Origin: Myxococcales bacterium
GTDB taxonomy: Bacteria; Myxococcota; Myxococcia; Myxococcales; 40CM-4-68-19
Assembly (NCBI GenBank): GCA_038231075.1
Contig: JBBRMA010000001.1
Span: 278,420 to 342,419 of the forward strand
DNA: 64,000 nucleotides
Direction of reading: 5' to 3'
Below are positions 2,862-57,905 of this stretch, piece by piece. The stretch's first letter is position 1; each line of letters starts with the position of its first letter. Made by a program: the position numbers and the translations under genes. A model generated the notes under the pieces. That model was given only the letters and a program-made list of their open reading frames with translations. It did not search any database and had not been told where the DNA came from.

Positions 2862-3842
2862 ATGGAGTTGCAGATGTCTGGCACGGTCCTCACGCGGGAC
2901 CTGGTCGCGGCCGAGGGATCGGTCGTCGCCAGCCGCGGGGACGTCGTGGACCTGGTGCTGCTGCGCGACGTCGCCGCGGGCGCGCCGAAGAGTCTTTCGC
3001 ACGTCGCCCTCCACCAGACCCGGCTCGCGGTCGAGGTGCTGGCCGCGCTCGACAGCCCCGCGCTCGAGCACATCTGCGGCGACGCGACGACCAAGGGCCG
3101 GCTGGCCGACGCGCTCAGCGAAGTGCGCTTCCCCCTGCCCGTCTGGATGGAGCTCGAGGCGCTGCGGCGCGAGGACGAGCTGCGCTGCCAGCACGCCATC
3201 TGGAGCGCGCTGGTGGCGGCTCGGATGTTCGGCGCCGCGCTCGGCGAGGCCCCGGGCCTCTTGCGGCTGGTGGGCGGCGCGCTGGTTCACGACATCGGCA
3301 TGCGCCACTCGGCGGCGCGGCTGCGCTGGAAGCGCGAGCACCTGACCCGCTCGGAGGCCGTGGCGCTCGAAGACCACCCGATGCTGGGCGCGCTCCTGCT
3401 GGCGCGCTGGCTCGGCGACGTTCCCGCCGTGCACTTCGCGCTGCTCCACCACACGCGCGCGGGGCAGGGCTACCCGAAGATTCCGGGCGCGCAGCCCCTG
3501 CGCGGCCTCGACGTGGTCACCGTCGCCAGCGCCTTCGCCGCGATGATCGCCCCGCGGCCTTTCCGGCCGACGCCCTTCAACGCGCGCGGCGCCGCCGACC
3601 AGCTCATCGAGGAGGCCCGGCTCGGCCACTTCGACGCGCGCGCGGTGCGGCTGCTCGTGCACTGCCTGCGCGGGGGCCGCGATCCCATCGCCGAGCTGGA
3701 GATGGGCAACCGCGCCAGCGGCTTCAAGCCGCCCGACAACCACTACGGCCTGCAAGCCCAGCCAGGGCGCGCGGGCGAGCGGCAGGACCTGGCGCAGGCC
3801 GGCGCGCGAATCGTCGCGCCAAGCGGGCTCAAAGCGGGCTGA
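2862..3842 (+). CDS. HD-GYP-type phosphohydrolase (putative c-di-GMP phosphodiesterase) with a diverged signature
   Basis: ALVHDIGM (HD) and HHTRAGQGYP (HHExxDGxGYP-like) motifs. ATG 2862 is preceded by GGAGGG at 2850-2855. The ORF-track start at 2790 looks too early. Confidence 0.75.
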   Translation: MELQMSGTVLTRDLVAAEGSVVASRGDVVDLVLLRDVAAGAPKSLSHVALHQTRLAVEVLAALDSPALEHICGDATTKGRLADALSEVRFPLPVWMELEALRREDELRCQHAIWSALVAARMFGAALGEAPGLLRLVGGALVHDIGMRHSAARLRWKREHLTRSEAVALEDHPMLGALLLARWLGDVPAVHFALLHHTRAGQGYPKIPGAQPLRGLDVVTVASAFAAMIAPRPFRPTPFNARGAADQLIEEARLGHFDARAVRLLVHCLRGGRDPIAELEMGNRASGFKPPDNHYGLQAQPGRAGERQDLAQAGARIVAPSGLKAG

Positions 3843-13713: not shown

Positions 13714-13759
13714 TCGCCCACCCATTGCGCTTTCCCCGCAACGTGGTAGTTGCGCGCTC

Positions 13760-14041
13760 GTGGCCGACCCGACTGGCACAGCGTCTCCTCTTGCGGCAAG
13801 CGCGGACACGGCGACGCCGGGCCGTTATGAAGAGATCGTCCAGCGGCTGGCCAAGGTGGTCGAGCGGCTGGAGGGCGGGGGCATCTCGCTCGAAGAGAGC
13901 ATCGCCGCGTTCGAGGAAGGCATCCGCCTTGCCCGGGCCGGCGCGCAAAAGCTGGAGGAGGCGGAGCGCAAGGTCGAGGTGCTGCTGGCCGATGATCGGG
14001 AAGCGCCATTCAACCCGGACGACGGCGCCCGCGGACGCTGA
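13760..14041 (+). CDS. xseB: Exodeoxyribonuclease VII small subunit
   Basis: [53 protein letters not shown] is the typical XseB helical hairpin. It sits next to xseA. Confidence 0.85.
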   Translation: MADPTGTASPLAASADTATPGRYEEIVQRLAKVVERLEGGGISLEESIAAFEEGIRLARAGAQKLEEAERKVEVLLADDREAPFNPDDGARGR

Positions 14042-14053
14042 GTCGGAAGGCCG

Positions 14054-14491
14054 ATGACGATGATGCCAGCGAAAAAAAAGAAGATCATCATCGTCGACGA
14101 CGACCGTGAGACGCGGGAGATGCTCAAGATGGCTCTCGAGCTCGAGGGCTACGAAGTGAGCCAGGCCGCCAACGGGCTCCGCCTGATCAGCACGCTGCAC
14201 GTCGATCGGCCGGACCTCATCCTGCTCGACGTGATGATGAGCTGGATCGACGGGTTCGAGCTGTGCCGCGCGGTGAAGAAGAACGAGGAGTTCAACTCCA
14301 TCCCGGTGATCTTCATCAGCGCCAAGAAGACGGCGAGCGACGTCCGCACCGGTCTGGCCGCCGGCGCCGCCGACTACTTCTCCAAGCCCATCGACATGGA
14401 GCGGCTGCTGGCGCGCATCGCGGCGCTGGTCGAGCCGCCGCCGACCGCAGCGCCCGTCGGCAGCCCGCCCGCCGAGCGGCCGCACTCCTAG
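14054..14491 (+). CDS. Single-domain response regulator (CheY-like receiver)
   Basis: [16 protein letters not shown]...[23 protein letters not shown]...PVIFISAK...DYFSKPID. Confidence 0.9.
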
Positions 14492-14677
14492 AGCACCGAT
14501 CGGTTTGGTGGACCGATTAGAACGGCCGAGTCGCAAGCAGCGCAAGGAACGACGAGGCGCCGTACTTTCTGTACTGCTGCAACGAGGAGAGACGCGGCGA
14601 TGCGCAGCGAATCGGCCGAGCGGGTTGCCCGCCAACCCGCGGTTCTCCGACGGGAACCAAACCGTTCGGTGCTCTAG
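14488..14677 (+). ncRNA. Candidate structured RNA (6S-like rod with an asymmetric internal bubble); the alternative is a TA-flanked miniature inverted-repeat element. Strand is uncertain.
   Basis: A 22-bp closing stem pairs 14488-14509 with 14656-14677 (one T/T mismatch at 14500/14665). A second 12-bp stem pairs 14523-14534 with 14607-14618 (one mismatch). A 3'-side hairpin GCGGGTTG/CAACCCGC lies at 14620-14640. The element fills the whole gap between the receiver stop and the tlyA GTG (14680) and is less GC-rich than its flanks. Confidence 0.4.
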
Positions 14678-14679
14678 CA

Positions 14680-15417
14680 GTGGCGCGCGTTCGCGCCGAT
14701 CTCCTCGTCCTCGCGCGCGGGCTCGCAGGCACGCGCAGCAGGGCGCAGGCGCTGATCCTCGCGGGGGAGGTGGTGGCCGGCGACCACCGCGTGGACAAAC
14801 CCGGACAGCTCCTCGACGAGGGCGCCGACCTGCGGCTCAAGTCGGACCCCACGGCGCTGCGCTACGTCTCGCGCGGCGGGCTCAAGCTCGAGCGCGCGCT
14901 CGACCACTTCGGGCTCGATCCGCGCGGCCGCATCGCTTGTGACCTGGGCGCCTCGACAGGCGGGTTCACCGACGTGCTGCTGCAGCGGGGCGCGCTGCGG
15001 GTCCACGCGGTGGACGTGGGCTACGGCCAGCTCCACGAGCGGCTGCGGGCCGACCCGCGCGTCGTCATCCACGAGCGGGTGAACGCCCGCTCGCTCAGCC
15101 GCGAGACGCTCGGCGAGGCCTGCTCGGCGGCGGTCGCCGACCTGTCGTTCATCTCGCTCAAGCTGGTCCTCCCTGCGCTCGTCTCGCTGCTCTCGCCCGG
15201 CGCGTTCTGCGCGGTGCTGGTCAAACCGCAGTTCGAGGCTGGGCGCGCCGAGGTGGGCAAGGGCGGGGTGGTCAAGGACCCCGCGGTCCACGTGCGCGTG
15301 GTCGCCGAGGTCGAGCAGGCGCTCGCTGGCCTGGGCGCGCGTGTGCTGGGCAACACTCCCTCGCCGTTGGTCGGGCCCGCCGGCAACCGCGAATTCCTCG
15401 TCGCGGCGGTCGTTTGA
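14680..15417 (+). CDS. tlyA: TlyA-family rRNA 2'-O-methyltransferase (hemolysin A family)
   Basis: VARVRADLLVLARGLAGTRSRAQALILAGEV (S4-like) followed by an FtsJ-like SAM motif CDLGASTGGFTDVLLQRGA..VHAVDVGYGQL. Confidence 0.9.
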   Translation: MARVRADLLVLARGLAGTRSRAQALILAGEVVAGDHRVDKPGQLLDEGADLRLKSDPTALRYVSRGGLKLERALDHFGLDPRGRIACDLGASTGGFTDVLLQRGALRVHAVDVGYGQLHERLRADPRVVIHERVNARSLSRETLGEACSAAVADLSFISLKLVLPALVSLLSPGAFCAVLVKPQFEAGRAEVGKGGVVKDPAVHVRVVAEVEQALAGLGARVLGNTPSPLVGPAGNREFLVAAVV

Positions 15418-21836: not shown

Positions 21837-24800
21837 TCAAGGTGGCCCCTGGGGAAAGCGCACGAGCATGGGCTCCTGCGCGGCGGCCGTGCTGCCGAGC
21901 GCGGTCGCGCCTTTGTAGCTGACCGAGCCCGCGTAGGCGCCGCTCACCCAGGCCGAGCCGGCCGCGCCCGCGGTGACGCCGGTGACCAGCATCGGGCCGG
22001 TTGCGTTGATCGCCTCGACGGTGGGCGCGGTGAGCGCCGCGGGGAAGCGCGCGAGCCACGCGTTCTGCGCCTCGGTGGCCGAGCCGGCCAAGAGCGCCAC
22101 TCCGGCGAGCGAGGGCGTGCCTGAGTAGGCCCCCGCGGCGTAGACGTTGCCGGCGGCGTCGGTGTCGAGCGCCAACGCCTTGGACGAGCCCGCGCTGGCG
22201 ATGACCGCGAGCGGCGCCCCGCTCTGGGGGCCGACCAGCTGCGATCCGGCGCACGAGGCCCGCGCCAGGTACTTGACGACGAAGGCCGACGAGGCCGACG
22301 CGCCGCAAGCGACGGCCACGTTGTGCAGCTTGGGCGAGGCCTGGCAGAAGCCGGAGACGAAGATGGCGTCGGAGGCGCCCACCGCCACCGAGGTGACCTG
22401 ATCGTGCGCCTGGGCCGCCGCGTCGCGGAAGATCTCGTTGGCAAGACCGCCCGCAAAGCAGCCATTCTTGCCAGCGGCGTCGAAGGTCGCGAGGTAGGGC
22501 GCGGCCAGCGCGGTCAGGCCGCTCGAGTCGGCGGCGTTCCCGGCGGCCACCGTGCTGCCGAGCGAGTCGAGCGCCACCGCGGGGCCGAGCCTTGCCGTCG
22601 CGCTGGCAGGGTCTGCGCCCGCCGCGAGGTCGATCGCAAAGCCGCAGCCGCCGGCGGCCAGATCGAAGCGGGCCGCAAAGTCGCGGTGCGCGGAGGCGGC
22701 GGTGAGCGCGCAGGCGGCGGCGCCAAAATTCTCCGCTCCTCCGGCCGCGGCGCTGTAGACGCCGCCCGCCAGCACGGCGGTGCCGCTGGTCGCGAGCGAG
22801 CCGATGGCGCCGGCGCCGAAGTGGCGGACCCAGACGATGGCGCCGGCGTTGGTCAGCCGCGCGAGGAACATCGATTCGACCGCGCCCACGCTGACCGCGC
22901 CGGCGCCGTCGCCGAAGTCGACGCTGCCGGTGAACGAGCCGCCGATGAGCGCGTCGCCCGAGGGGGCTACGGCGACCGCCCGCACCCGCGCCGAGCCGGC
23001 GTTCGGGACCGCGCTGGTCGCGGGGAAGAGGCGATCCCAGCTCGCGCTCGCGGGGGAGGCCAGCGCGCCGCGGGCGCCGTTCGGGTCCAGGCCGAGCGCG
23101 AATCCGCTGCCGGCGCTCGAGAAGGTCGAGCCGGCGCGCACGCCGTGGCCGAGGTCGGCGCTGCCGGTGAAGTTGCCGCCCGCGAACAGGTCGCCGCTGC
23201 TGTCTGCGCCCACCGCCAGCGCGCTGCCGGTCGCGCCCGGGAAGGCGACGAGCTCCAGCTGCTGCAGGCAGCGGATCTTGGCGGCGATGGGCCCTGCGAC
23301 CGCGCCGCCCGTGCATCCCGAGGCCGCCGACACCGTGCAGACCTGCGCCGGGCCCTTGGGCTGCGCGGTGACCGCGAGGGCGCACGAGCCGCCGCGCGGG
23401 ATGGGTTCGGCGAAGGCAAAGGTCGCGGCGCCGGAAGGGACGGCGAGGGCCTCGGTGTCATTGAAGGGCCCGGCCGCGAAGGCGAGCGTGTCCTGGAGCG
23501 CGAGGCCGCTCGAGGGCAACTGGCCCGCCGCACCCGCGGCCACCGAGGTGTCGAAGGTGCCGGCGACGGCGTAGCCGCAGATGACGCGCGGGCTGGTCAC
23601 GTCGGCTGTGCCCACCGTGCCGCTGCCGTTGCGCACGATGCAGGCGAGGCCGCTCGGCGGCGTCTGGACCGTCACGCTGTACGCGAGCCCCTGCCGCACC
23701 GGCGTCGCGAACTGGAAGGGGATGGCCGCGCCGGTGCTGCTCGCGGAGCCGCTCAGGACCAGCTGGTCGCCGCTGTTGTCCAAGAGCGCCATGGCCACGC
23801 TCGCGCCCGTGGCCAGGCCGATCACCTGGCCACCCACGCGCCACGCCGGCGTTCCGCACGAGATGGCGATGCTGCCGTCGTCGGCCTGGCCCATGGTGCC
23901 GCTGCCGTCGAAGTTGCCGCTGTTGCCTCCCGAGGCCACGCAGGCCTGCGCGGGCGCGCCGGGCTCTGCGCTGACGTTCACCCGATAGGCCGCGCCTTCG
24001 CCGATCTGCGTCGGGAAGGAGAAGGGCACCTCCGCGCCGGCGGCGGCCGGCACGGCCACGACATCGCCGCCGTTGGTGAGCACGAGGCCAGCGCCGACGA
24101 GGCCGCTGACCGTCCCGGAGAGCGTGTGCGAGGGCGCGCAGTCGATGATGGCGCTGGTCACGTTGCCAGATCCGACGAGGCCGATGTCGGTGCCGGCGCG
24201 CAGCGCGCAGACCTGGCCCGGCGGCTGCGACTTGACCGTCACGCGGTAGCTCTGGCCGCTCGGCAGCGGGGTGGCGAAGTTGAAGAACGGGTAGCGCGGC
24301 ATGGCCACCGAGACGTGCAGATCGTCGCCGCCGCTCTGCTGCAGCTGGACGCTGGTGCCGATGGCGAGGCCGTTGATGACGCCGCCGACGGTGAAGCGGC
24401 TGGTCGTGCAGGTGAGCGCGAGGTCGGTCACGTTGGCGCTCGGGTTGCCGGCGGCGGGACTGGGCGAGCCAGGGCTCTGCGCGCAGCTCTGCGACGGGTT
24501 GACCGGCTGCTGCCGCGCCGCGATGGCGTAGCCCTGCGCCTGCGAGACGGGCCGCTTGAAGCTGAAGGCGGTCTGGCCTTGCGCGATGGGCACGATCTCG
24601 CCGCTGGTCGCGTTGACGAGCTGCAAGCTGGCGCCCGAGTAGCCCGCGATGGTGCCGGCGATGGTGAAGCCCGGCGCGCACGCGACCTGGATGGTGTTGA
24701 TGTTGGCGGCGACGACGCTCCCGCTGCCGGCGCTGAGCGCGCAGGACACCGGCCCGGTCGAGGAGACGAGCGCGGCTGCGTAGGTCTGGCCTCCCGGAAG

Positions 24801-27800
24801 GGCGGTCACGAAGTTGAAGCCCACCGGCGTTGCGCCCGTTCCGCTGCCGTTCACGGTGCGGCTGTCGGCGCCGTTGTTCAAGAGAGTCACGCTGGCTCCC
24901 GCGGGCAGGCCGGTGACGGCGCCGCCGATCGAGAACGCGGTCGTGGCGCAGGTGACGACGAGGTTCGCGACGTTCGCGGCCGGATTGCCCGCGGGGAAGG
25001 CCGGCGAGGAGGGCAGCACCGCGCAGGCTTGCGACGGCACGGTGGGCTGCGCGGTGACTGCGAGCGCGTAGCCTTGCTTCTGCGTGAAGAGCTTGCTGAA
25101 GGCGAAGCTGGTCGCGCCCTGGGCGATGGCGACCGTCTCGCCGGTGGCGTTGTTCTTCAACGAGAGGCCCGCGCCCGCGTAGCCTGCGATGGTGCCCGCG
25201 AGGCTGAACGCGGGCGAGCAGGCGATGGCGACGTTGGCCACCGGCGCGGCGGCGATGGTGCCGCTGCCTCCGCTGGCGACGCTGCAGAGGACCGGGCCCG
25301 CCGAGGAAGAGACCGCGGCCGCGTAGCCCTGTCCGCTCTTGACCGCGGTGGCGAAGGCAAAGGCGATGGGTGCGCTGCCGTCAGAGGCGCCTCCCACCGT
25401 GAGCGGGTCTGCGCCGTTGTCGAGCAGCGTGACGCTCGCGCCCGCGGGCAGGCCGGCGACGGTACCGCCGACGCTGAAGCCGGTGGTGGCGCAGGTGACG
25501 GCGAGGTTCGAGACGTTGGCGGAGGGGCTGCCCGACGCGGGCAGGACGTTGCAGCTCTGCGTCGGCGCCGTGGGCTGCGCGGTGACCGAAAGCGAGAAGC
25601 CCTGCGCCTGCGTGACCAGCCTCGTGAACGCGAGCGTGGTGGCCCCCCCGGCGACGGTGAGCGTCTCGCCGGTGGTCGTGCTCGTGATCTGCAGCCCGGT
25701 GGCGGCGTAGCCAGCGACGGTGCCCGAGAGGCTGAAGGCCGGGGCGCAGGCGATCTGCACGTTGCCGACCGCGGCGCCGGCGACCGTGCCATTGCCTCCG
25801 CTCGCGACGCGGCACGAGACGGGACCAGCCTGGCTGCTGACCGACACTGAATATCCTTCGCCGCTCCCGACCAGCGCGGGGAAGGTGAAGGCGATGGGCG
25901 CCGCGCCGGTGCCAGAGCCTGTGACCACCTTGGTGTCGGCGCCGTTCTGCAAGGTGACCGTGGCCGTTGCCGGCAGGCCGTTCACCTGGCCGCCCACCAC
26001 GAACGAGCTGGTCGCGCAGAGCAACGCGAGCGTGGTGACGTCGGCCGCCGGGTTGCCGCTCGCGGGCTTTGGCGAGGCGCCGCTGACGCCGCACACCTGG
26101 GCCGGCGAGCTGGGCTGGGCGACGACGCTGACCGCGTAGCCTTGCGCCTGCGTCACCCGCTGCGTGAACGCGAAGGCCGTCTGGCCGGCGGCGATGGACA
26201 GCGTCTCGCCGGTGGGCCCGTTCTTGAGCACGAGGCCGCCGCCGGTGACGCTGCTGATCGCGCCCGAGATGGCGAAGGTCGGCACGCAGGCGATCTGCAC
26301 CGTGGAGACATTGGCCGCAGCGATGGTGCCGCTCCCGCCCGCGCTGACGCGGCAGGAGACGGGTCCGCTCGCGCTGACGACGGTGGCGGCGAACGTTGCC
26401 CCGCTCGGGACCGGGGCCGCGAAGGTGAAGGGCACCGCGGCTGCGCCCGTTCCGGCGCCGTTGACGGTGAGCGAATCGGCGCCGTTGTCGAGCAGCGTGA
26501 CAGAGGAGCCCGAAGGCAGTCCGGTGACGCTCCCGCCGACGGTGAAGCCGGTGGTCGCGCAGGTGAACGCCAGCGTCGTCACGTTGGCCGCGGGGTTGCC
26601 CGCTTGCGGGCTCGGCGTGCACGACTGGGTTGGCGCGGCGGGCTGGGAGGTGGCGCTGATCGAGTAGCCTTGCGCCTGCGTGACGGGCCTCGCGAAGGCA
26701 AACGTGGTCGCGGCCTTGGCGATGGCCAGCGCTTCGCCGGTGGTGGAGTTGGTCAAGACGAGGCCCGTCCCGGCGACCCCGGAGAGCGTCCCGCTGAGCG
26801 TGAACGCGGGCACGCAGGTGACCTGGATGGCGGTGAGGTTTCCGTTGGTCACCGCTCCATTCGCGCCCGCCGTCACCGAGCACGAGACGGGCCCGCTGGT
26901 CGCGGTCTGCACCGCCGCGTAGCTGCGCCCGCTCGCCACCGGCACGCCGAAGAGGAAGGCCACCGGCGCCGCGCCCGTGCCGCTGCCGGCGACCGTGCGC
27001 GCGTCGAACCCGTCGTTGAGCAGCGTGACCGAGGAGCCCGCGGGCAGGCCGGTGACGCTGCCGCCCACCGTGAACGCGCTGGTGGTGCAGACGACGGCGA
27101 CGCTGCCGATGGCGGAGCCGCCCATGGTCCCGGCGCGATTGGTCAGCGCGCACGACTGCACGGGGCCGCTCGGCTGGGTCTGCACGCTCACCGAGTACGG
27201 TCGGCTCGTCTGCACCGGCGTGGCGAAGGTGAAGGCGCCGTCCTGCGAGACGGCCAGCGCGTCCGCTCCGTTGTCGAGGAGCACGAGCCCGGCGCCGGTG
27301 AGGCCGGTGACGGTGCCGCCCACCGTGAAGGAGGGCGTGGTGACGCAGGTGAGCTGGATGTTGGTGACGTTCCTGGCCACGATGCCGCTGCCGTTGGTCA
27401 GTGTGCAGGTCTGGAACGGATTGGCCGGCTGCGACTTGATGGTGACCGAGTAGCTCTGACCCGCCTGGAGCAAGCCGGTGAAGATGAAGAGGCCATCGGC
27501 GGCAAGCGGCACATCGCCGCCGCCGTCTTCCTGGACGACGAGGCCCGCGCCGGCGACGCCGTGGGCGACTCCACCGATGAGGAAGAAGGGGCTGGTCTGG
27601 CAGCTGACGATGACGCCCGTGACATCGGCGCTGCCGACGGTGCCGCGGCCTCCGCTGACCGAGCAGATCTGCAGCGGCGAGCCCGGCTGGGTCGCGACCG
27701 ACACCGCGTAGGGTTGGCCGCCCTGGAGCTGCGTCGCGAAGGTGAAGCTGCCGTTCTGCACCAGGGGCAGCGGGTCCGCGCCGTTGTCGAGGAGAACCAG

Positions 27801-30275
27801 GCCCGCGCCGCCAAGCCCTGTGACCACGCCGGTCACGTTGAAGAAGGGATTGGTGCTGCAAGTGATGGGCACGACGACGTCGCTGCCGCCGATCGCTCCG
27901 GAGGCGCCGGCGCCGGCCGTGCACGTCTGGCGCGGGCCCGCGGGCTGCGCCTTGACGGTCACCGCGTAGGTTTGCCCGGCGGTCAGCTGGTCGGCGAACG
28001 CGTAGGTGCCGTCTGCGACCACCGGCAGATCGTCACTGCCGTCGTGCCGCAGGACGAGGCCCGCGCCGCTCAGGCCCGAGACCTGCGCCTTGACCGAGAA
28101 GAAGGGCGCGCTGCCGCAGCTGACGCCGATCGAGGTGATGTTGGCCGCGCCCACCATGCCCGCGCCGCCCGCGGTGACGGCGCAGATCTGGCCGGCCGGC
28201 TGGGCCGCGATCGAGGCGGCGAAGGCCTGCCCCTCTTGCAGCGCGGTCGCGAAGGTGAAGGTGCCTGCGGCCGAGAGGTGCAGGTCGTCGCCGCCGTTGT
28301 CGCGCAGGACCAGGCCCGGCGCGGCCAGGCCGACGACGCGGCCGCCGATGGTGAACGACGGGTTGTCGGCGCAGGTGACGCCGATCGAGCTCACGTCGGC
28401 GGTGCCGACCACGCCGCTGCCCTGCGAGATGGTGCAGGTCTGCAGCGGCGCGGCTGGCTGCGTGAGCACGGTGATGCGGAAGGGCACGTTTTCTTGAAGC
28501 TGCGTCGGGAAGGTGAAGCTGCCGTTGGCGGCGATGGGCAGGTCGTCGCCGCCGTCGTCGCGCAGGACCAGGCCCGAGCCGCGCAGGCCGAGAACGGTGC
28601 CGCCGATGGAGAGGAAGGGGCTGCCCTGGCAGGTGACGAGGATGGTGGCGACGTCGGCCGCGCCCACCGTGCCTTCGCCATCGCTGACGGTGCAGATCTG
28701 GTAGGGCCCGAAGGGCTGCGCCGCGACGCTCACCGAGAAGCTCTGCGTGCCTTGCAGCGTGGTCGGGAAGGCGAAGGCGCCGTTCTGCGAGATGGTCAGA
28801 TCATCGCCGCCGTTGTCGTGCAGCACCAGCCCCTGGCCGGCGAGGCCGCTCACCGTGCCGCCCACGGCGAAGTAGGGGTTCGCGGTGCAACTGACGGCGA
28901 TGGTCGTGATGTGGTCCTGGGCGACGACGCCGCTGCCCGCGTCCACCGTGCAGGTCTGGAGCGGGCCCGTGGGCTGGGACTTGACGGTGACCGAGTAGGG
29001 CAGGCCGCTCTGGACGCCGGTGTCGAAGGCGAAGTCGCCGTTGGCGGTGACGGGCAGGTCGTCGCCGAGCTCGTTTTGCAGGATCAGGCCGCTGCCCGCG
29101 AGGCCAGAGACCGTGCCGCCGATGTCGAAGAACGGGTCGGTCGTGCAGAGCACCGAGACAGAGCTGACGCCGCTCGGCCCGACGCTGCCGGTGTCCGCGC
29201 TCACGGTGCAGGTCTGGTTCGGCGCGGTCGGCTGGTGGCCGACGGTGATCGCGTAGGGCGCGCCGACGAAGAGCGCGCCGAGGAACTGGAACGAGCCCTC
29301 GGCGAGGACGGGCAGGGGGTCGCCGCCGTTGTCGAGCAGCACGAGGCCGCTGCCGCGCAGGCCCTGGACGGTTCCGCCGACCGGCACCGTGGGCGGGGTT
29401 CCGCAATCGACGGACAGGGAGACGGGTCCTGCGCCCATCACGCCCGAGCCGGCCTGCACGGCGCAGAACTGCCCCGCGGGCTGCGTCTTCACCGTCACCG
29501 AGTAACGCGCGCCCTGCTGCACCTTGCGCGAGAAGGTGAAGCTGGTCGCGCCCGGGTCGAGGTGCACGATGTCCTCGAGCAGGTCGGCGAGCGAAAGGCC
29601 TGCGCCCGTCAGGCCTGTCACCTTGCCGGAGACCGCGAACGAGGGGGCGTCGGCGCAGGTGATGGAGATGGGCTTGCCCGCGTCGCCCACCGCGCCGACC
29701 GCGTTGGCGATGGCGCAGATCTGCAGCGGGCTCGTCGGCTGGCGCTTGATGGTGACCTCGTAGGGCGCGCCCCTGGCGAGCTGGGTGGCGAAGTTGAAGC
29801 TGGTCGCGCCCGCGGGGAGCGGCAGGTCGTCGCCGCCGTTGTTTTGCAAGAGGAGCCCGACGCCCGCGAGGCCGCTGACGGCGCCGCTGACGGCCGTCGG
29901 CTCGCCGGTCAGGCAGCGCACCTGGATGTCGATGACGTCCACCAGCGCCACCGCGCCCTGCGCGCCCGAGATGGTGCAGGTCTGCACGGGACTTTTCGGC
30001 TGCTGGAAGACGGTGATCACGTAGGACGCGCCGGGCAAAAGCCGCGTCGAGAAGGTGAACGGCTGGTTGGCGCCGATGCGCAGATCGTCGCCGCCCGAGT
30101 TGCGCAGGATGAGGCCGCTGCCGACCAGCCCCTGCACCGTGCCGCCGACGGAGTGGCCCTGGGCGCCGCCGTCGAAGCGGCCGAGGTCGATGTTGGTCGT
30201 GCCTCCGCAGCCCGCGGCGAGGGCGGCCAGGGTCAGCGTGGCGAGCGTGCGGTGGTGGGTGCGGCGCTGCTTCAT
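21837..30275 (-). CDS. Giant (2812 aa) lipoprotein: about 26 tandem ~88-aa Cys-bracketed repeats plus a ~476-aa C-terminal beta-propeller-like (SBBP-like) region
   Basis: Lipobox LAALAAGCGG. Repeat consensus F.VGGTVSGL.G.GLVL.NNGGDDL.V.ANG.FTF.T.L..G..Y.VTV..QP..P.QTCTV..GSG.VG.A.V..I.V.C. The C-terminus has motifs like GDLFAGGNFTGSADLG, MFLARLTNAGAIVWVRHFG, AFVVKY, GNVYAAGAYSG and AWLARF. Uninterrupted ORF with strong GC3. Confidence 0.9.
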   Translation of the reverse strand: MKQRRTHHRTLATLTLAALAAGCGGTTNIDLGRFDGGAQGHSVGGTVQGLVGSGLILRNSGGDDLRIGANQPFTFSTRLLPGASYVITVFQQPKSPVQTCTISGAQGAVALVDVIDIQVRCLTGEPTAVSGAVSGLAGVGLLLQNNGGDDLPLPAGATSFNFATQLARGAPYEVTIKRQPTSPLQICAIANAVGAVGDAGKPISITCADAPSFAVSGKVTGLTGAGLSLADLLEDIVHLDPGATSFTFSRKVQQGARYSVTVKTQPAGQFCAVQAGSGVMGAGPVSLSVDCGTPPTVPVGGTVQGLRGSGLVLLDNGGDPLPVLAEGSFQFLGALFVGAPYAITVGHQPTAPNQTCTVSADTGSVGPSGVSSVSVLCTTDPFFDIGGTVSGLAGSGLILQNELGDDLPVTANGDFAFDTGVQSGLPYSVTVKSQPTGPLQTCTVDAGSGVVAQDHITTIAVSCTANPYFAVGGTVSGLAGQGLVLHDNGGDDLTISQNGAFAFPTTLQGTQSFSVSVAAQPFGPYQICTVSDGEGTVGAADVATILVTCQGSPFLSIGGTVLGLRGSGLVLRDDGGDDLPIAANGSFTFPTQLQENVPFRITVLTQPAAPLQTCTISQGSGVVGTADVSSIGVTCADNPSFTIGGRVVGLAAPGLVLRDNGGDDLHLSAAGTFTFATALQEGQAFAASIAAQPAGQICAVTAGGAGMVGAANITSIGVSCGSAPFFSVKAQVSGLSGAGLVLRHDGSDDLPVVADGTYAFADQLTAGQTYAVTVKAQPAGPRQTCTAGAGASGAIGGSDVVVPITCSTNPFFNVTGVVTGLGGAGLVLLDNGADPLPLVQNGSFTFATQLQGGQPYAVSVATQPGSPLQICSVSGGRGTVGSADVTGVIVSCQTSPFFLIGGVAHGVAGAGLVVQEDGGGDVPLAADGLFIFTGLLQAGQSYSVTIKSQPANPFQTCTLTNGSGIVARNVTNIQLTCVTTPSFTVGGTVTGLTGAGLVLLDNGADALAVSQDGAFTFATPVQTSRPYSVSVQTQPSGPVQSCALTNRAGTMGGSAIGSVAVVCTTSAFTVGGSVTGLPAGSSVTLLNDGFDARTVAGSGTGAAPVAFLFGVPVASGRSYAAVQTATSGPVSCSVTAGANGAVTNGNLTAIQVTCVPAFTLSGTLSGVAGTGLVLTNSTTGEALAIAKAATTFAFARPVTQAQGYSISATSQPAAPTQSCTPSPQAGNPAANVTTLAFTCATTGFTVGGSVTGLPSGSSVTLLDNGADSLTVNGAGTGAAAVPFTFAAPVPSGATFAATVVSASGPVSCRVSAGGSGTIAAANVSTVQIACVPTFAISGAISSVTGGGLVLKNGPTGETLSIAAGQTAFAFTQRVTQAQGYAVSVVAQPSSPAQVCGVSGASPKPASGNPAADVTTLALLCATSSFVVGGQVNGLPATATVTLQNGADTKVVTGSGTGAAPIAFTFPALVGSGEGYSVSVSSQAGPVSCRVASGGNGTVAGAAVGNVQIACAPAFSLSGTVAGYAATGLQITSTTTGETLTVAGGATTLAFTRLVTQAQGFSLSVTAQPTAPTQSCNVLPASGSPSANVSNLAVTCATTGFSVGGTVAGLPAGASVTLLDNGADPLTVGGASDGSAPIAFAFATAVKSGQGYAAAVSSSAGPVLCSVASGGSGTIAAAPVANVAIACSPAFSLAGTIAGYAGAGLSLKNNATGETVAIAQGATSFAFSKLFTQKQGYALAVTAQPTVPSQACAVLPSSPAFPAGNPAANVANLVVTCATTAFSIGGAVTGLPAGASVTLLNNGADSRTVNGSGTGATPVGFNFVTALPGGQTYAAALVSSTGPVSCALSAGSGSVVAANINTIQVACAPGFTIAGTIAGYSGASLQLVNATSGEIVPIAQGQTAFSFKRPVSQAQGYAIAARQQPVNPSQSCAQSPGSPSPAAGNPSANVTDLALTCTTSRFTVGGVINGLAIGTSVQLQQSGGDDLHVSVAMPRYPFFNFATPLPSGQSYRVTVKSQPPGQVCALRAGTDIGLVGSGNVTSAIIDCAPSHTLSGTVSGLVGAGLVLTNGGDVVAVPAAAGAEVPFSFPTQIGEGAAYRVNVSAEPGAPAQACVASGGNSGNFDGSGTMGQADDGSIAISCGTPAWRVGGQVIGLATGASVAMALLDNSGDQLVLSGSASSTGAAIPFQFATPVRQGLAYSVTVQTPPSGLACIVRNGSGTVGTADVTSPRVICGYAVAGTFDTSVAAGAAGQLPSSGLALQDTLAFAAGPFNDTEALAVPSGAATFAFAEPIPRGGSCALAVTAQPKGPAQVCTVSAASGCTGGAVAGPIAAKIRCLQQLELVAFPGATGSALAVGADSSGDLFAGGNFTGSADLGHGVRAGSTFSSAGSGFALGLDPNGARGALASPASASWDRLFPATSAVPNAGSARVRAVAVAPSGDALIGGSFTGSVDFGDGAGAVSVGAVESMFLARLTNAGAIVWVRHFGAGAIGSLATSGTAVLAGGVYSAAAGGAENFGAAACALTAASAHRDFAARFDLAAGGCGFAIDLAAGADPASATARLGPAVALDSLGSTVAAGNAADSSGLTALAAPYLATFDAAGKNGCFAGGLANEIFRDAAAQAHDQVTSVAVGASDAIFVSGFCQASPKLHNVAVACGASASSAFVVKYLARASCAGSQLVGPQSGAPLAVIASAGSSKALALDTDAAGNVYAAGAYSGTPSLAGVALLAGSATEAQNAWLARFPAALTAPTVEAINATGPMLVTGVTAGAAGSAWVSGAYAGSVSYKGATALGSTAAAQEPMLVRFPQGPP
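23268..30155 (-). repeat. In-frame coding tandem repeats of the giant lipoprotein: 12 single units (30155-27075), 5 A/B double units of ~536 nt (27074-24396), and 4 divergent units (24395-23268)
   Basis: Recurrent DNA blocks such as ggcgccgttgtcgagcagcgtgac...ggcaggccggtgac...gcgcaggtgac near 24875, 25411, 25936, 26478 and 27010 (spacing ~530-540 nt). Unit boundaries were read from the F-x-V/L-G/S-G motif. Confidence 0.85.
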
Positions 30276-42722: not shown

Positions 42723-42916
42723 GCGGGCGGTCCCCTGATGAGGCGAGGTCGCGGCGACCATACTGGCGGTCGCCGGTCGGTGGCAACTCCGATCCGATTC
42801 CGACCGCGCGGTGCGCCAGCCAGGAGAGTGCGTCGTGGGGCCGGCTAGCCCTGTATCCGCGCGACGGTGCGCGCGGGATCGGGACAGCTCGCGTCGGCGA
42901 ATACGCCGAGGGCCTC

Positions 42917-55988: not shown

Positions 55989-57905
55989 TCAAATCGCTTC
56001 CAGGAACTCCGCGTTGCTCGAGAACTCGTTGAGCGACTTCATCAGCCGCTCCATCGCCTCGGCGGGCTTCAACGAATAGAGAGCGCCGCGCAGCTTCTTC
56101 ACCTTCTCGCACTCGTGCTGCGAGAAGAGCTTCTCTTCCTTGCGCGTGCCGCTGGTCTGGATGTTGATGGCCGGGAAGACGCGCTTCTCGGCCAGCTGGC
56201 GGTCGAGGTTGATTTCGCTGTTTCCCGTGCCCTTGAACTCCTCGAAGATCACCTCGTCCATGCGCGAGCCGGTGTCGATGAGCGCGGTGGCGATGATGGT
56301 CAAAGAGCCGCCCTCCTCGGCGTTGCGGGCGGCGCCGAACAGGCGCTTGGGGCGCTCGAGCGCGCGTGAGTCCACGCCGCCCGAGAGGGTTCGGCCCGAG
56401 GACTCAACCTCTTTGTTATAGGCGCGCGAGAGGCGGGTGATTGAGTCCAGGAGGATCACCACGTCCTTGCCCGCTTCGACCAACCGCTTGCTGCGCTCGA
56501 GCACCATCTCGGCGACGTGCAGGTGCTCCTCGGTCGGCCGGTCCGACGAGCTGGCGAAGACCTCGGCCTTCACCGTGCGGCGGAAGTCGGTCACTTCCTC
56601 GGGACGCTCGTCCACCAAGAGGACGAACTGGATGACGTCGGGCTTGTTGATGGTGATGGCCGCGCAGATCTTCTGCAGCATGATCGTCTTGCCGGTCTTG
56701 GGCGGCGCGACGATCAGCATGCGCTGGCCCATGCCGATGGGCGCGACGATGTCGATGACGCGCGTGAGCAGCTCTTTGGGCGTCGTCTCCATGATCAGCC
56801 GGTCGTCGGGGTCCACGACCGTCAGGTTCTGGAAGGCGGTGCGGGCTGTGGCGAGGCGCGGGTCGATGCCCTCGACCAGCTCGACGCGCACCAGCTGCGG
56901 CTTGCCGTTGCGGCGCGCCGACTGGCCGACGATGAGGTGGCCGGGCCGCAGCTTCTCGCGCTCGATGAAGAACTTCGGCACCTCGACATCGTCAGGATTG
57001 CCGAGGTAGCTGCGCACCGGGTTCGGGCTGCGCAGCCGGCCGTTGCCGCGGTGATCGACGTCGAGCACGCCCTCGCACGGCGTGAGCGGCTCCTGCCGCG
57101 GCTGCTGCTGCTGCTTCTGCTGGTTCTGGCCTTGGTTCTGGTTCTGGCCTTGGTTCTGACCCTGGTTTTGGTTCTGGTTCTGGCCGCCCTGCTGCTGCTG
57201 GCCGTGGCGATTGTGCCGGTTGCGCCCGTGCTGGTTCCGCTGGTGGCCGTGCTGCTGCTGCTGGCCCCCCTGCTGCTGCTGCTGGCCTTGCTGCTGACCT
57301 TGCTGCTGGGGAGGCGGAGCGGCGCCATCCGTGGGCGCACTCTCGGCTGCGGGCGCCTCACCCGAGGGCTGCGCCGGTTGGGACGGAGCGCTCTCGGCCG
57401 CCATGGGCGCGGGCTGGCCGTCAGCGGAGGGCGCGGCCTCGGCCTTCGGCGCTTGCACCGGCGGCGGCTCGGTCACCTGCGTGTGCACGTCGGCGGCGGG
57501 CTGCGCTGAGGCCTGCTGCTGCGCGCGCTCAGGCTCCTGCGCGTCGGCGGCGGCGGCCGGGAGCGCCTGGTTGCCATCCACCCCCTCGTCGTCGCCATCG
57601 TCGGGCTGATCGTTCTCGACGTCGACGATGCGCCCCTGCGCGTCGAGCGGCGCCGCGACGGCCGGCTTGTCGCCTGCGCCCTTGCCTCGCCCGCGGCCCC
57701 TGCCTCCGCGCCGCTGCCGCCGGAAGCGCCGCCGGCCGGCGCCCTCTTGTCCTGGTGCCGGCTGCTGCGCGGGTGCGCCGTTCGGACCGGCGACGTTCCC
57801 GTTCGCCTCGTGCGCCTGCGCGCGCTGCTGGTGCGGGACCCTGGCATTGCCGGGCTCCGCCGCATCAGGACCGCTGCTCGGGGGACGCTGACCTTCCTGG
57901 CTCAT
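55989..57905 (-). CDS. rho: Transcription termination factor Rho with a ~270-aa disordered N-terminal region (RGG box plus Q/N/H-rich tract)
   Basis: C-terminal 365 aa is canonical Rho (VAPIGMGQRMLIVAPPKTGKT, LLVDERPEEVTDF, ILLDSITRLSRAYN, TALIDTGSRMDEVIFEEFKGTGNSEI). ATG 57905 (MSQEGQ) is preferred over 57956. Confidence 0.93.
   Translation of the reverse strand: MSQEGQRPPSSGPDAAEPGNARVPHQQRAQAHEANGNVAGPNGAPAQQPAPGQEGAGRRRFRRQRRGGRGRGRGKGAGDKPAVAAPLDAQGRIVDVENDQPDDGDDEGVDGNQALPAAAADAQEPERAQQQASAQPAADVHTQVTEPPPVQAPKAEAAPSADGQPAPMAAESAPSQPAQPSGEAPAAESAPTDGAAPPPQQQGQQQGQQQQQGGQQQQHGHQRNQHGRNRHNRHGQQQQGGQNQNQNQGQNQGQNQNQGQNQQKQQQQPRQEPLTPCEGVLDVDHRGNGRLRSPNPVRSYLGNPDDVEVPKFFIEREKLRPGHLIVGQSARRNGKPQLVRVELVEGIDPRLATARTAFQNLTVVDPDDRLIMETTPKELLTRVIDIVAPIGMGQRMLIVAPPKTGKTIMLQKICAAITINKPDVIQFVLLVDERPEEVTDFRRTVKAEVFASSSDRPTEEHLHVAEMVLERSKRLVEAGKDVVILLDSITRLSRAYNKEVESSGRTLSGGVDSRALERPKRLFGAARNAEEGGSLTIIATALIDTGSRMDEVIFEEFKGTGNSEINLDRQLAEKRVFPAINIQTSGTRKEEKLFSQHECEKVKKLRGALYSLKPAEAMERLMKSLNEFSSNAEFLEAI
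57100..57310 (-). repeat. Gln/Asn/Gly/His codon microsatellite-like tract inside rho
   Basis: Plus strand reads ctgctgctg / ctggttctggccttggttctgg repeats. It translates on the minus strand to QQQGQQQGQQQQQGGQQQQHGHQRNQHGRNRHNRHGQQQQGGQNQNQNQGQNQGQNQNQGQNQQKQQQQ. Confidence 0.85.

Follow-up and report, generated by a model that had tools for sequence, protein, structure and literature searches.

The 190 nt segment at positions 14488-14677 of the window (the whole 64 000-nucleotide stretch of DNA analysed here) is very probably a non-autonomous MITE of the IS630/Tc1-mariner type, inserted at the TA of the TAG stop codon of a response-regulator receiver gene. This assignment is based on terminal inverted repeats with TA/CTAG flanks, an empty site in a related genome, dispersed near-identical copies, a full-length profile match and ends of the kind carried by IS630-family insertion sequences (ISs). 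The original prediction, made from the sequence alone, had offered a 6S-like RNA and an IS630/mariner-derived MITE as alternatives for the same segment; the latter was borne out on almost every point that had been named as a test.

The features of the element and of the flanking genes are listed in Table 1. Every statement that had been made about its base pairing was confirmed. The terminal stem is formed by positions 14488-14509 (CTAGAGCACCGATCGGTTTGGT), which are the reverse complement of 14656-14677 over 22 bp with one T/T mismatch, so that TA-flanked terminal inverted repeats of 19-22 bp with one mismatch are present where 19 bp had been proposed. The inner pairing (14523-34 with 14607-18, 12 bp) also contains one mismatch, the hairpin at 14620-40 has 8 bp and a loop of 5 nt, and the apical GCAGC/GCTGC and GTAC/GTAC pairings are present in the minimum-free-energy fold. 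Most of this additional hairpin (GCGGGTTG-CCCGC-CAACCCGC) is supplied by the extra block at approximately 14606-14629. The folding energy of the 190 nt is -99.1 kcal/mol (+ strand) and -99.4 (- strand), compared with an average of about -70 ± 4 for dinucleotide shuffles (z = -7.0 and -7.3, respectively; 0 of 200 shuffles were as stable). The terminal 19-mer occurs at just these two sites in the 64 kb (0.01 expected). The GC content of the element (0.61-0.69) is below that of its flanks (0.72-0.80), as had been stated, and the only frames in the open-reading-frame list that cross it are non-gene frames, all of which also overlap the flanking genes. With 184 nt plus the TA flanks and no transposase gene, the element is of the short (less than about 300 bp), non-autonomous kind by which MITEs are recognized.

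Table 1. Coordinates of the predicted MITE, its parts and the adjoining genes in the window
Feature	Positions	Strand	Description	Basis
Response-regulator receiver gene	14054-14491	+	TAG stop at 14489-14491, made of the left TA and the first base (G) of the element	Pfam Response_reg, E = 1e-29
Left TA target copy	14489-14490	.	CTAG with C14488 and G14491	Sequence; empty site in L046; family flanks
Predicted MITE body	14491-14674	+	184 nt, GAGCACC...GGTGCTC; 'f' orientation (GGACCGA beside the left end)	Profile match, blastn, alignment A1
Left terminal inverted repeat GAGCACCGATCGGTTTGGT	14491-14509	+	First 11-13 nt are those of the ends of Microvirga IS630-family ISs
Left subterminal motif GGACCGA	14510-14516	+	Unpaired; similar to the ACGGAC of the Microvirga IS left end	Family-conserved, at least 90% in columns 20-27 of alignment A1
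Extra block of about 24 nt	14606-14629	+	Not in the 157 nt subfamily	Gap columns 119-142 of A1 and fold; boundaries dependent on the alignment
Right subterminal motif CGACGGGAA	14648-14656	+	Family-conserved CGACGGGAG; reverse complement CTCCCG also in the Microvirga IS, at its right end	Columns 160-169 of A1
Right terminal inverted repeat ACCAAACCGTTCGGTGCTC	14656-14674	+		Sequence
Right TA target copy	14675-14676	.	CTAG with C14674 and G14677	Sequence
tlyA-like rRNA 2'-O-methyltransferase gene	14680-15417	+	GTG start, 3 nt past the right TA	Pfam FtsJ, E = 3e-41, and S4

The element occupies the whole gap between receiver and tlyA, as had been claimed, apart from the two nucleotides 'ca'. In the window, xseA lies upstream of the receiver gene and a histidine kinase gene downstream of tlyA. 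The open reading frame at 13725-14057, between xseA and receiver, gave no Pfam match from its longest start; the window xseB is probably the shorter frame at 13760-14041, relatives having Exonuc_VII_S (xseB) at that position. The window TlyA is 100% identical to a database protein (P0001), the nearest named relatives of which are annotated as Myxococcales bacterium, and homologues 76-82% identical to it were obtained from MAGs of Myxococcales and from metagenomes. Gene order was constant across the retrieved loci (xseA, xseB, receiver, tlyA, histidine kinase, TPM-domain gene). The claim that the element interrupts a common xseAB...tlyA neighbourhood thus holds in part: the relatives also have a receiver gene between xseB and tlyA, and what the element splits is the receiver-tlyA junction.

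The element was absent from the orthologous receiver-tlyA junction in five relatives. In the closest of these (L046, TlyA 82% identical) the junction reads ...tcgTAGccATG with a gap of 2 nt, in L172, L173 and L174 stop and start overlap (TGATG), and in L175 the junction is TGAcTTG. When the element is taken out of the window sequence together with one TA, tccTAGcaGTG is left; this corresponds to the arrangement in L046, the target being CTAG, and the L046 sequence TAGccATG is the predicted empty site. On the basis of these sequences the element is a lineage-specific insertion that splits a tightly coupled receiver-tlyA junction. The receiver protein is predicted to be unchanged because the element begins with G and TA plus G, which had originally been noted to supply the TAG stop, rebuilds it. 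At the same junction in L045 (GCA_043781235.1, 2874-3000) a 124 nt spacer begins at the receiver TAG stop and has a 19 bp inverted repeat of its own (GTGCAGCGCCGTCGAGATG...CATCTCGACGGCGATGCAC). It was considered as a diverged copy of the MITE and rejected as unrelated, since the MITE profile gave no match; a separate insertion of a small palindrome at this stop codon may have given rise to it.

Metagenome contigs were scanned with a two-arm pattern, which matched at least 120 contigs, and chance pairs were removed before elements were counted. The matches listed contained 101 clear elements, which represented 93 distinct flank pairs and both orientations (48:48); the flanks were CTA...TAG in 70 of the 101. 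The dominant size class among these matches was 156-157 nt (35 distinct loci, median pairwise identity 93%), and many pairs of 157 nt copies at different loci were 98-99% identical. Single metagenome samples contained copies at 4-6 different loci each, and one contig (L119) carried two copies 6.4 kb apart. One 157 nt copy lies next to a gene whose product is shared at 100% identity with a Polyangia bacterium MAG, which places the host of this copy in the same broad lineage as the window.

An nhmmer profile was built from 54 metagenomic copies (150-160 nt) with the window copy left out. Model positions 1-157 matched the window at 14491-14674 over the full length (E = 3.4e-24). This was the one full-length match within the 64 kb window; the other two were sub-significant self-matches of the terminal repeats (E = 0.06 and 0.64). 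With blastn, element positions 1-67 were 75-79% and positions 140-184 about 82% identical to the family. The first 17 nt of the terminal repeat are near-invariant in the 55 aligned copies of alignment A1. Repeats of other kinds were also observed in the window. Positions 22880-30200 contain long arrays of diverged direct repeats (periods of about 258 and 528-540 nt, 60-78% identity), which look like a gene for a very large repeat-domain protein, and positions 57070-57310 contain low-complexity CTG/GTT-rich repeats with an 18 nt period (TGGTTCTGG..., GCTGCTGCTG) that are probably coding.

Contigs of species-representative genomes were scanned with one terminal-repeat arm, giving 44 loci; the source genome was not represented among them. 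About 40 of these were chance or coding matches (the HAMP-domain sequence 'TKPIGAL' in L026, L030 and L031; the end of an open reading frame in L044). The real relatives were L001, L016 and L034, with elements of 168-204 nt and both CTAGAGCACCGA-N-CGG arms, together with a short hairpin in L013. The latter (positions 3142-3170; MAG Proteobacteria bacterium Chersky.38_30) reads TCTAGAGCACC-GAACGGTTT-GGTGCTCTA followed by ATTTT; it has the terminal sequence of the MITE without its interior and could represent a footprint, a copy that has collapsed or a coincidental likeness. Variants of 197-202 nt were observed in L049 (2109-2310), L086 (2677-2873), L094 (2353-2553) and L116 (660-859). They correspond to the 157 nt copies with a common apical GC-rich block of about 44 nt (GGGCGCGC..GCGCGGTGGAGGCAGGG..GGTCCCTC) and form a sub-lineage marked by a nested insertion, much as the window copy has approximately 24 extra nucleotides. 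Viral contigs gave a single match, which was coding and due to chance.

The window contains 14 CTAG sites, about 12-fold fewer than the 171 that its base composition predicts; the element is flanked by two of them. CTAGAG accounts for six of the 14, and no second element was found at the CTAG sites at 42845 and 42917. A copy was counted as sharing a stop codon when the junction TA plus G (or its complement) formed the TAG of a neighbouring open reading frame with high GC3. This was the case for 37 of the 101 listed copies, compared with 62 of 440 other CTAG sites at the same loci (Fisher p = 1e-6). Among the matches listed, 40 copies lay downstream of a gene, ten between convergent genes and two between divergent genes. 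The stop-codon pattern fits a TA/CTAG-specific transposase combined with the loss of disruptive insertions.

A link to IS630 was provided by the ends of the element. When the left-end 36 nt were used as a query against the PLSDB plasmids, weak matches were obtained, two of which lay exactly at one end of an IS of Microvirga sp. VF16 that is annotated as IS630-family; the match that led to it was weak on its own (E = 4). This IS (NZ_CP069358.1, 206134-207184; locus L168, 2004-3054; 1051 bp) encodes a 318-amino-acid transposase with Pfam DDE_3 and HTH_Tnp_IS630 domains. Its two copies, at different sites, both have the form cTA-GAGCACCGGACGG...-TAg or, written out further, cTA-GAGCACCGGACGGTTAAACGGAC...GTCCG(A/G)TGCTC-TAg. 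The IS ends, TA-GAGCACCGGACGGTT..., agree with the TA-GAGCACCGAACGGTT... of the MITE at 16 of 19 nt, and the IS likewise sits in CTAG. The subterminal sequences of the MITE differ between left (ACGGACC) and right (reverse complement CTCCCGTCG), and this asymmetry (ACGGAC versus CTCCCG) mirrors that between the left and right ends of the IS. In contrast, the IS comes from an alphaproteobacterium, encodes a transposase and shows no relationship to the MITE in its interior or further inside the terminal repeat. An element of Oleomonas with a transposase 63% identical to that of Microvirga has the form cTA-GAGCATC...GATGCTC-TAg. From these sequences, the Microvirga and Oleomonas elements would define an IS630 clade that ends in TA-GAGCA(C/T)C...G(G/A)TGCTC-TA inside CTAG, as does the MITE. 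A MITE-like sequence of about 195 nt (TAGAGCAGCGAACGGTTTGTCGGACC...GACTGTTCGGTGCC) was observed in a plasmid of Microvirga lotononidis (NZ_CP141050.1; L169, 2003 to approximately 2197). It resembles a degenerate family member and suggests that the family or its parent spans phyla. Among the other plasmid searches, the whole element gave only a chance 34 nt match in Rhodococcus Mu-transposase genes, and the best of nine matches of a right-end query (H13) was coding, the other eight being shorter and weaker.

In Myxococcota genomes, no autonomous IS ending exactly in GAGCACCGAACGG was found. Among the retrieved loci there was no autonomous partner with identical ends, no pair of terminal repeats 0.4-4 kb apart and, by tblastn over 1.16 Mb, no IS630 transposase. 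A protein search with the Microvirga transposase likewise yielded no Myxococcota partner among the best 120 matches, the named ones being almost all from Alphaproteobacteria, with one from a Gammaproteobacteria MAG. Against the IS630-type MITE assignment it can be held that the closest IS ends match at just 16 of 19 nt and come from Alphaproteobacteria, that the 64 kb window holds a lone copy, and that compensatory changes, conserved loops and an orientation bias are not obviously predicted for a purely selfish cut-and-paste element.

Mobilization by a transposase of another family, for example IS5, with a 4 bp duplication of CTAG rather than of TA, was considered. The IS5, IS427 and IS1031 groups of the IS5 family have 'GAG/GA' ends and YTAR or TNA targets in the ISfinder classification, the flanks of the element can equally be read as [CTAG]AGCACC...GGTGCT[CTAG], and a partner transposase was not found in the host lineage. 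However, the sole ISs found with such termini and CTAG flanks carry DDE_3/HTH_Tnp_IS630 transposases. In some copies the TA is intact next to other outer bases (ATA...TAG in L118, GTA...TAG in L110 and CTA...TAT in L127), which fits a 2 bp TA duplication in an NTAN target better, and the empty site in L046 is GTAG and not CTAG; an IS5-type origin is very unlikely. A dedicated gene for a 6S-like or other trans-acting small RNA, in which a bubbled rod would sequester RNA polymerase by imitating an open promoter, is less probable still, to the point of being hardly tenable. The length of about 185-190 nt, the long closing stem, the asymmetric internal loop and the very stable fold do resemble 6S RNA (RF00013 and related families), and the rod is backed by covariation. 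On the other hand, 6S RNA is conserved at its locus and this element belongs to a multi-copy, apparently mobile family, with homologous copies at about 93 distinct loci among those listed, and the window copy folds equally well on both strands. A cmscan of the whole window with Rfam 15 gave nothing at gathering thresholds. The recommended comparison with the 6S model and the full library found no match within the element even at E <= 10, the sole match at that level in 14350-14800 being a chance one to Streptomyces-metK (11.9 bits) inside the receiver gene. Neither promoter-like nor terminator-like sites were detected by a consensus scan of the element and its immediate surroundings. Many copies elsewhere in the genome and absence from the same gap in relatives had been named in advance as observations that would speak against a dedicated RNA gene; copies at many loci of metagenome contigs and absence from the gap in the five relatives are what was found, and the 6S-like alternative was abandoned.

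The element could also be a MITE by origin that has since been exapted, its transcribed rod acting in cis on the operon and RNA-level selection accounting for the conserved structure. In alignment A1 (55 distinct copies) 97.1% of the cells at paired positions are paired and double changes occur in 24 of 49 pairs, compared with 8-14 pairs and 29-37% pairing in slid controls, and none of 500 shuffles reached the observed values. The motifs GGACCGAG, CGACGGGAG and AGCAACG are unpaired and conserved in the family. The consensus folds better on the f strand (-67) than on the reverse strand (-53.6), and G:U cells exceed A:C cells by 91 to 13, although this excess rests on two columns and becomes 14 versus 10 when counted by column. 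Among the matches listed, the f strand is co-directional with the stop-sharing gene in a ratio of 25:9 (p = 0.009), which weakens to 26:14 (p = 0.08) under a broader definition; the test was post hoc and the ORF calls were crude. The enrichment at stop codons and the scarcity of copies between divergent genes point the same way, but the former is expected for any TA/CTAG-targeting element under purifying selection against intragenic insertions. Complementary arms are moreover common in bacterial MITEs and can be produced by subfamily birth or arm-to-arm conversion. Taken as a whole, exaptation is unlikely, and little weight can be given to the roles suggested for such a rod (a processing site for RNase III or RNase E, a stabilizer of the upstream mRNA 3' end, or an attenuator uncoupling receiver and tlyA). 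It is similarly doubtful whether Polyangia genomes have spread and retained the family, the receiver-tlyA pair included, as a mobile RNA module of 3'-UTRs or intercistronic regions that modulates mRNA stability, processing or operon coupling. Selection on the RNA could underlie the structure and orientation signals, as could the demands of transposition or the birth of palindromic subfamilies; simple selfish transposition leaves the covariation of the rod, the conservation of its loops and the sense-orientation bias unexplained.

For the IS630-type MITE, the following course of events may be proposed. An IS630-family DDE transposase encoded elsewhere would have bound the 17-19 bp terminal inverted repeats (GAGCACCGA-N-CGGTTTG), excised the element from its donor site and inserted it at the TA of the CTAG containing the receiver TAG stop. 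The TA would have been duplicated on insertion and the receiver TAG restored at the left junction by TA plus G. The outcome would be 186 bases of strongly self-complementary sequence between two genes formerly 2 nt apart, the likeliest consequence being a stable stem-loop that is now transcribed inside the operon. Both the mobilizing transposase and any effect on the expression of receiver or tlyA are matters that we infer from the sequences.

IS630 elements use CTAG as a target and duplicate TA. The RUP element of Streptococcus pneumoniae is an IS630-derived MITE, probably mobilized by an IS630 element. The Correia elements (CREE/NEMIS) of Neisseria are about 100-160 nt long, have terminal inverted repeats and a TA duplication and are present in hundreds of copies; they often lie next to or between genes and are co-transcribed as stable hairpins, and promoters, IHF sites and RNase III processing have been documented for them. 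The present MITE is like the Correia elements in size, inverted repeats and TA duplication and differs in sequence and in phylum, and no promoter-like site was found in it. With MITEs of the IS630/Tc1-mariner type (in vitro work on ISY100 is described in PMC2170065) it shares the small non-coding size, the terminal inverted repeats, the TA duplication, the predominant CTAG context, the dispersal as a multi-copy family in both orientations and termini that match those of genuine IS630-family ISs. It differs from the known ones in its seemingly undescribed sequence family and its Polyangia/Myxococcales hosts. The terminal-repeat 13-mer did not occur in the literature searched, and the literature search found no paper on MITEs in Myxococcota; the sequence family thus appears to be undescribed, whereas the kind of element is well known.

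For annotation, the assignment keeps a transposon copy from being taken for a 6S-like regulatory RNA gene, and it accounts for the split of a normally coupled receiver-tlyA pair in this genome. It also delimits a MITE family, apparently undescribed, with abundant copies in Polyangia of soil and peat; the termini and CTAG context of the family tie it to a clade of IS630 elements. The family could serve as a strain marker. It illustrates a probable route to persistence in a genome of 70% GC, where TA/CTAG targets are rare and mostly coincide with TAG stop codons, which the initial G of the element rebuilds. If the orientation and covariation signals hold, the family would offer a case study of MITE structure under selection.
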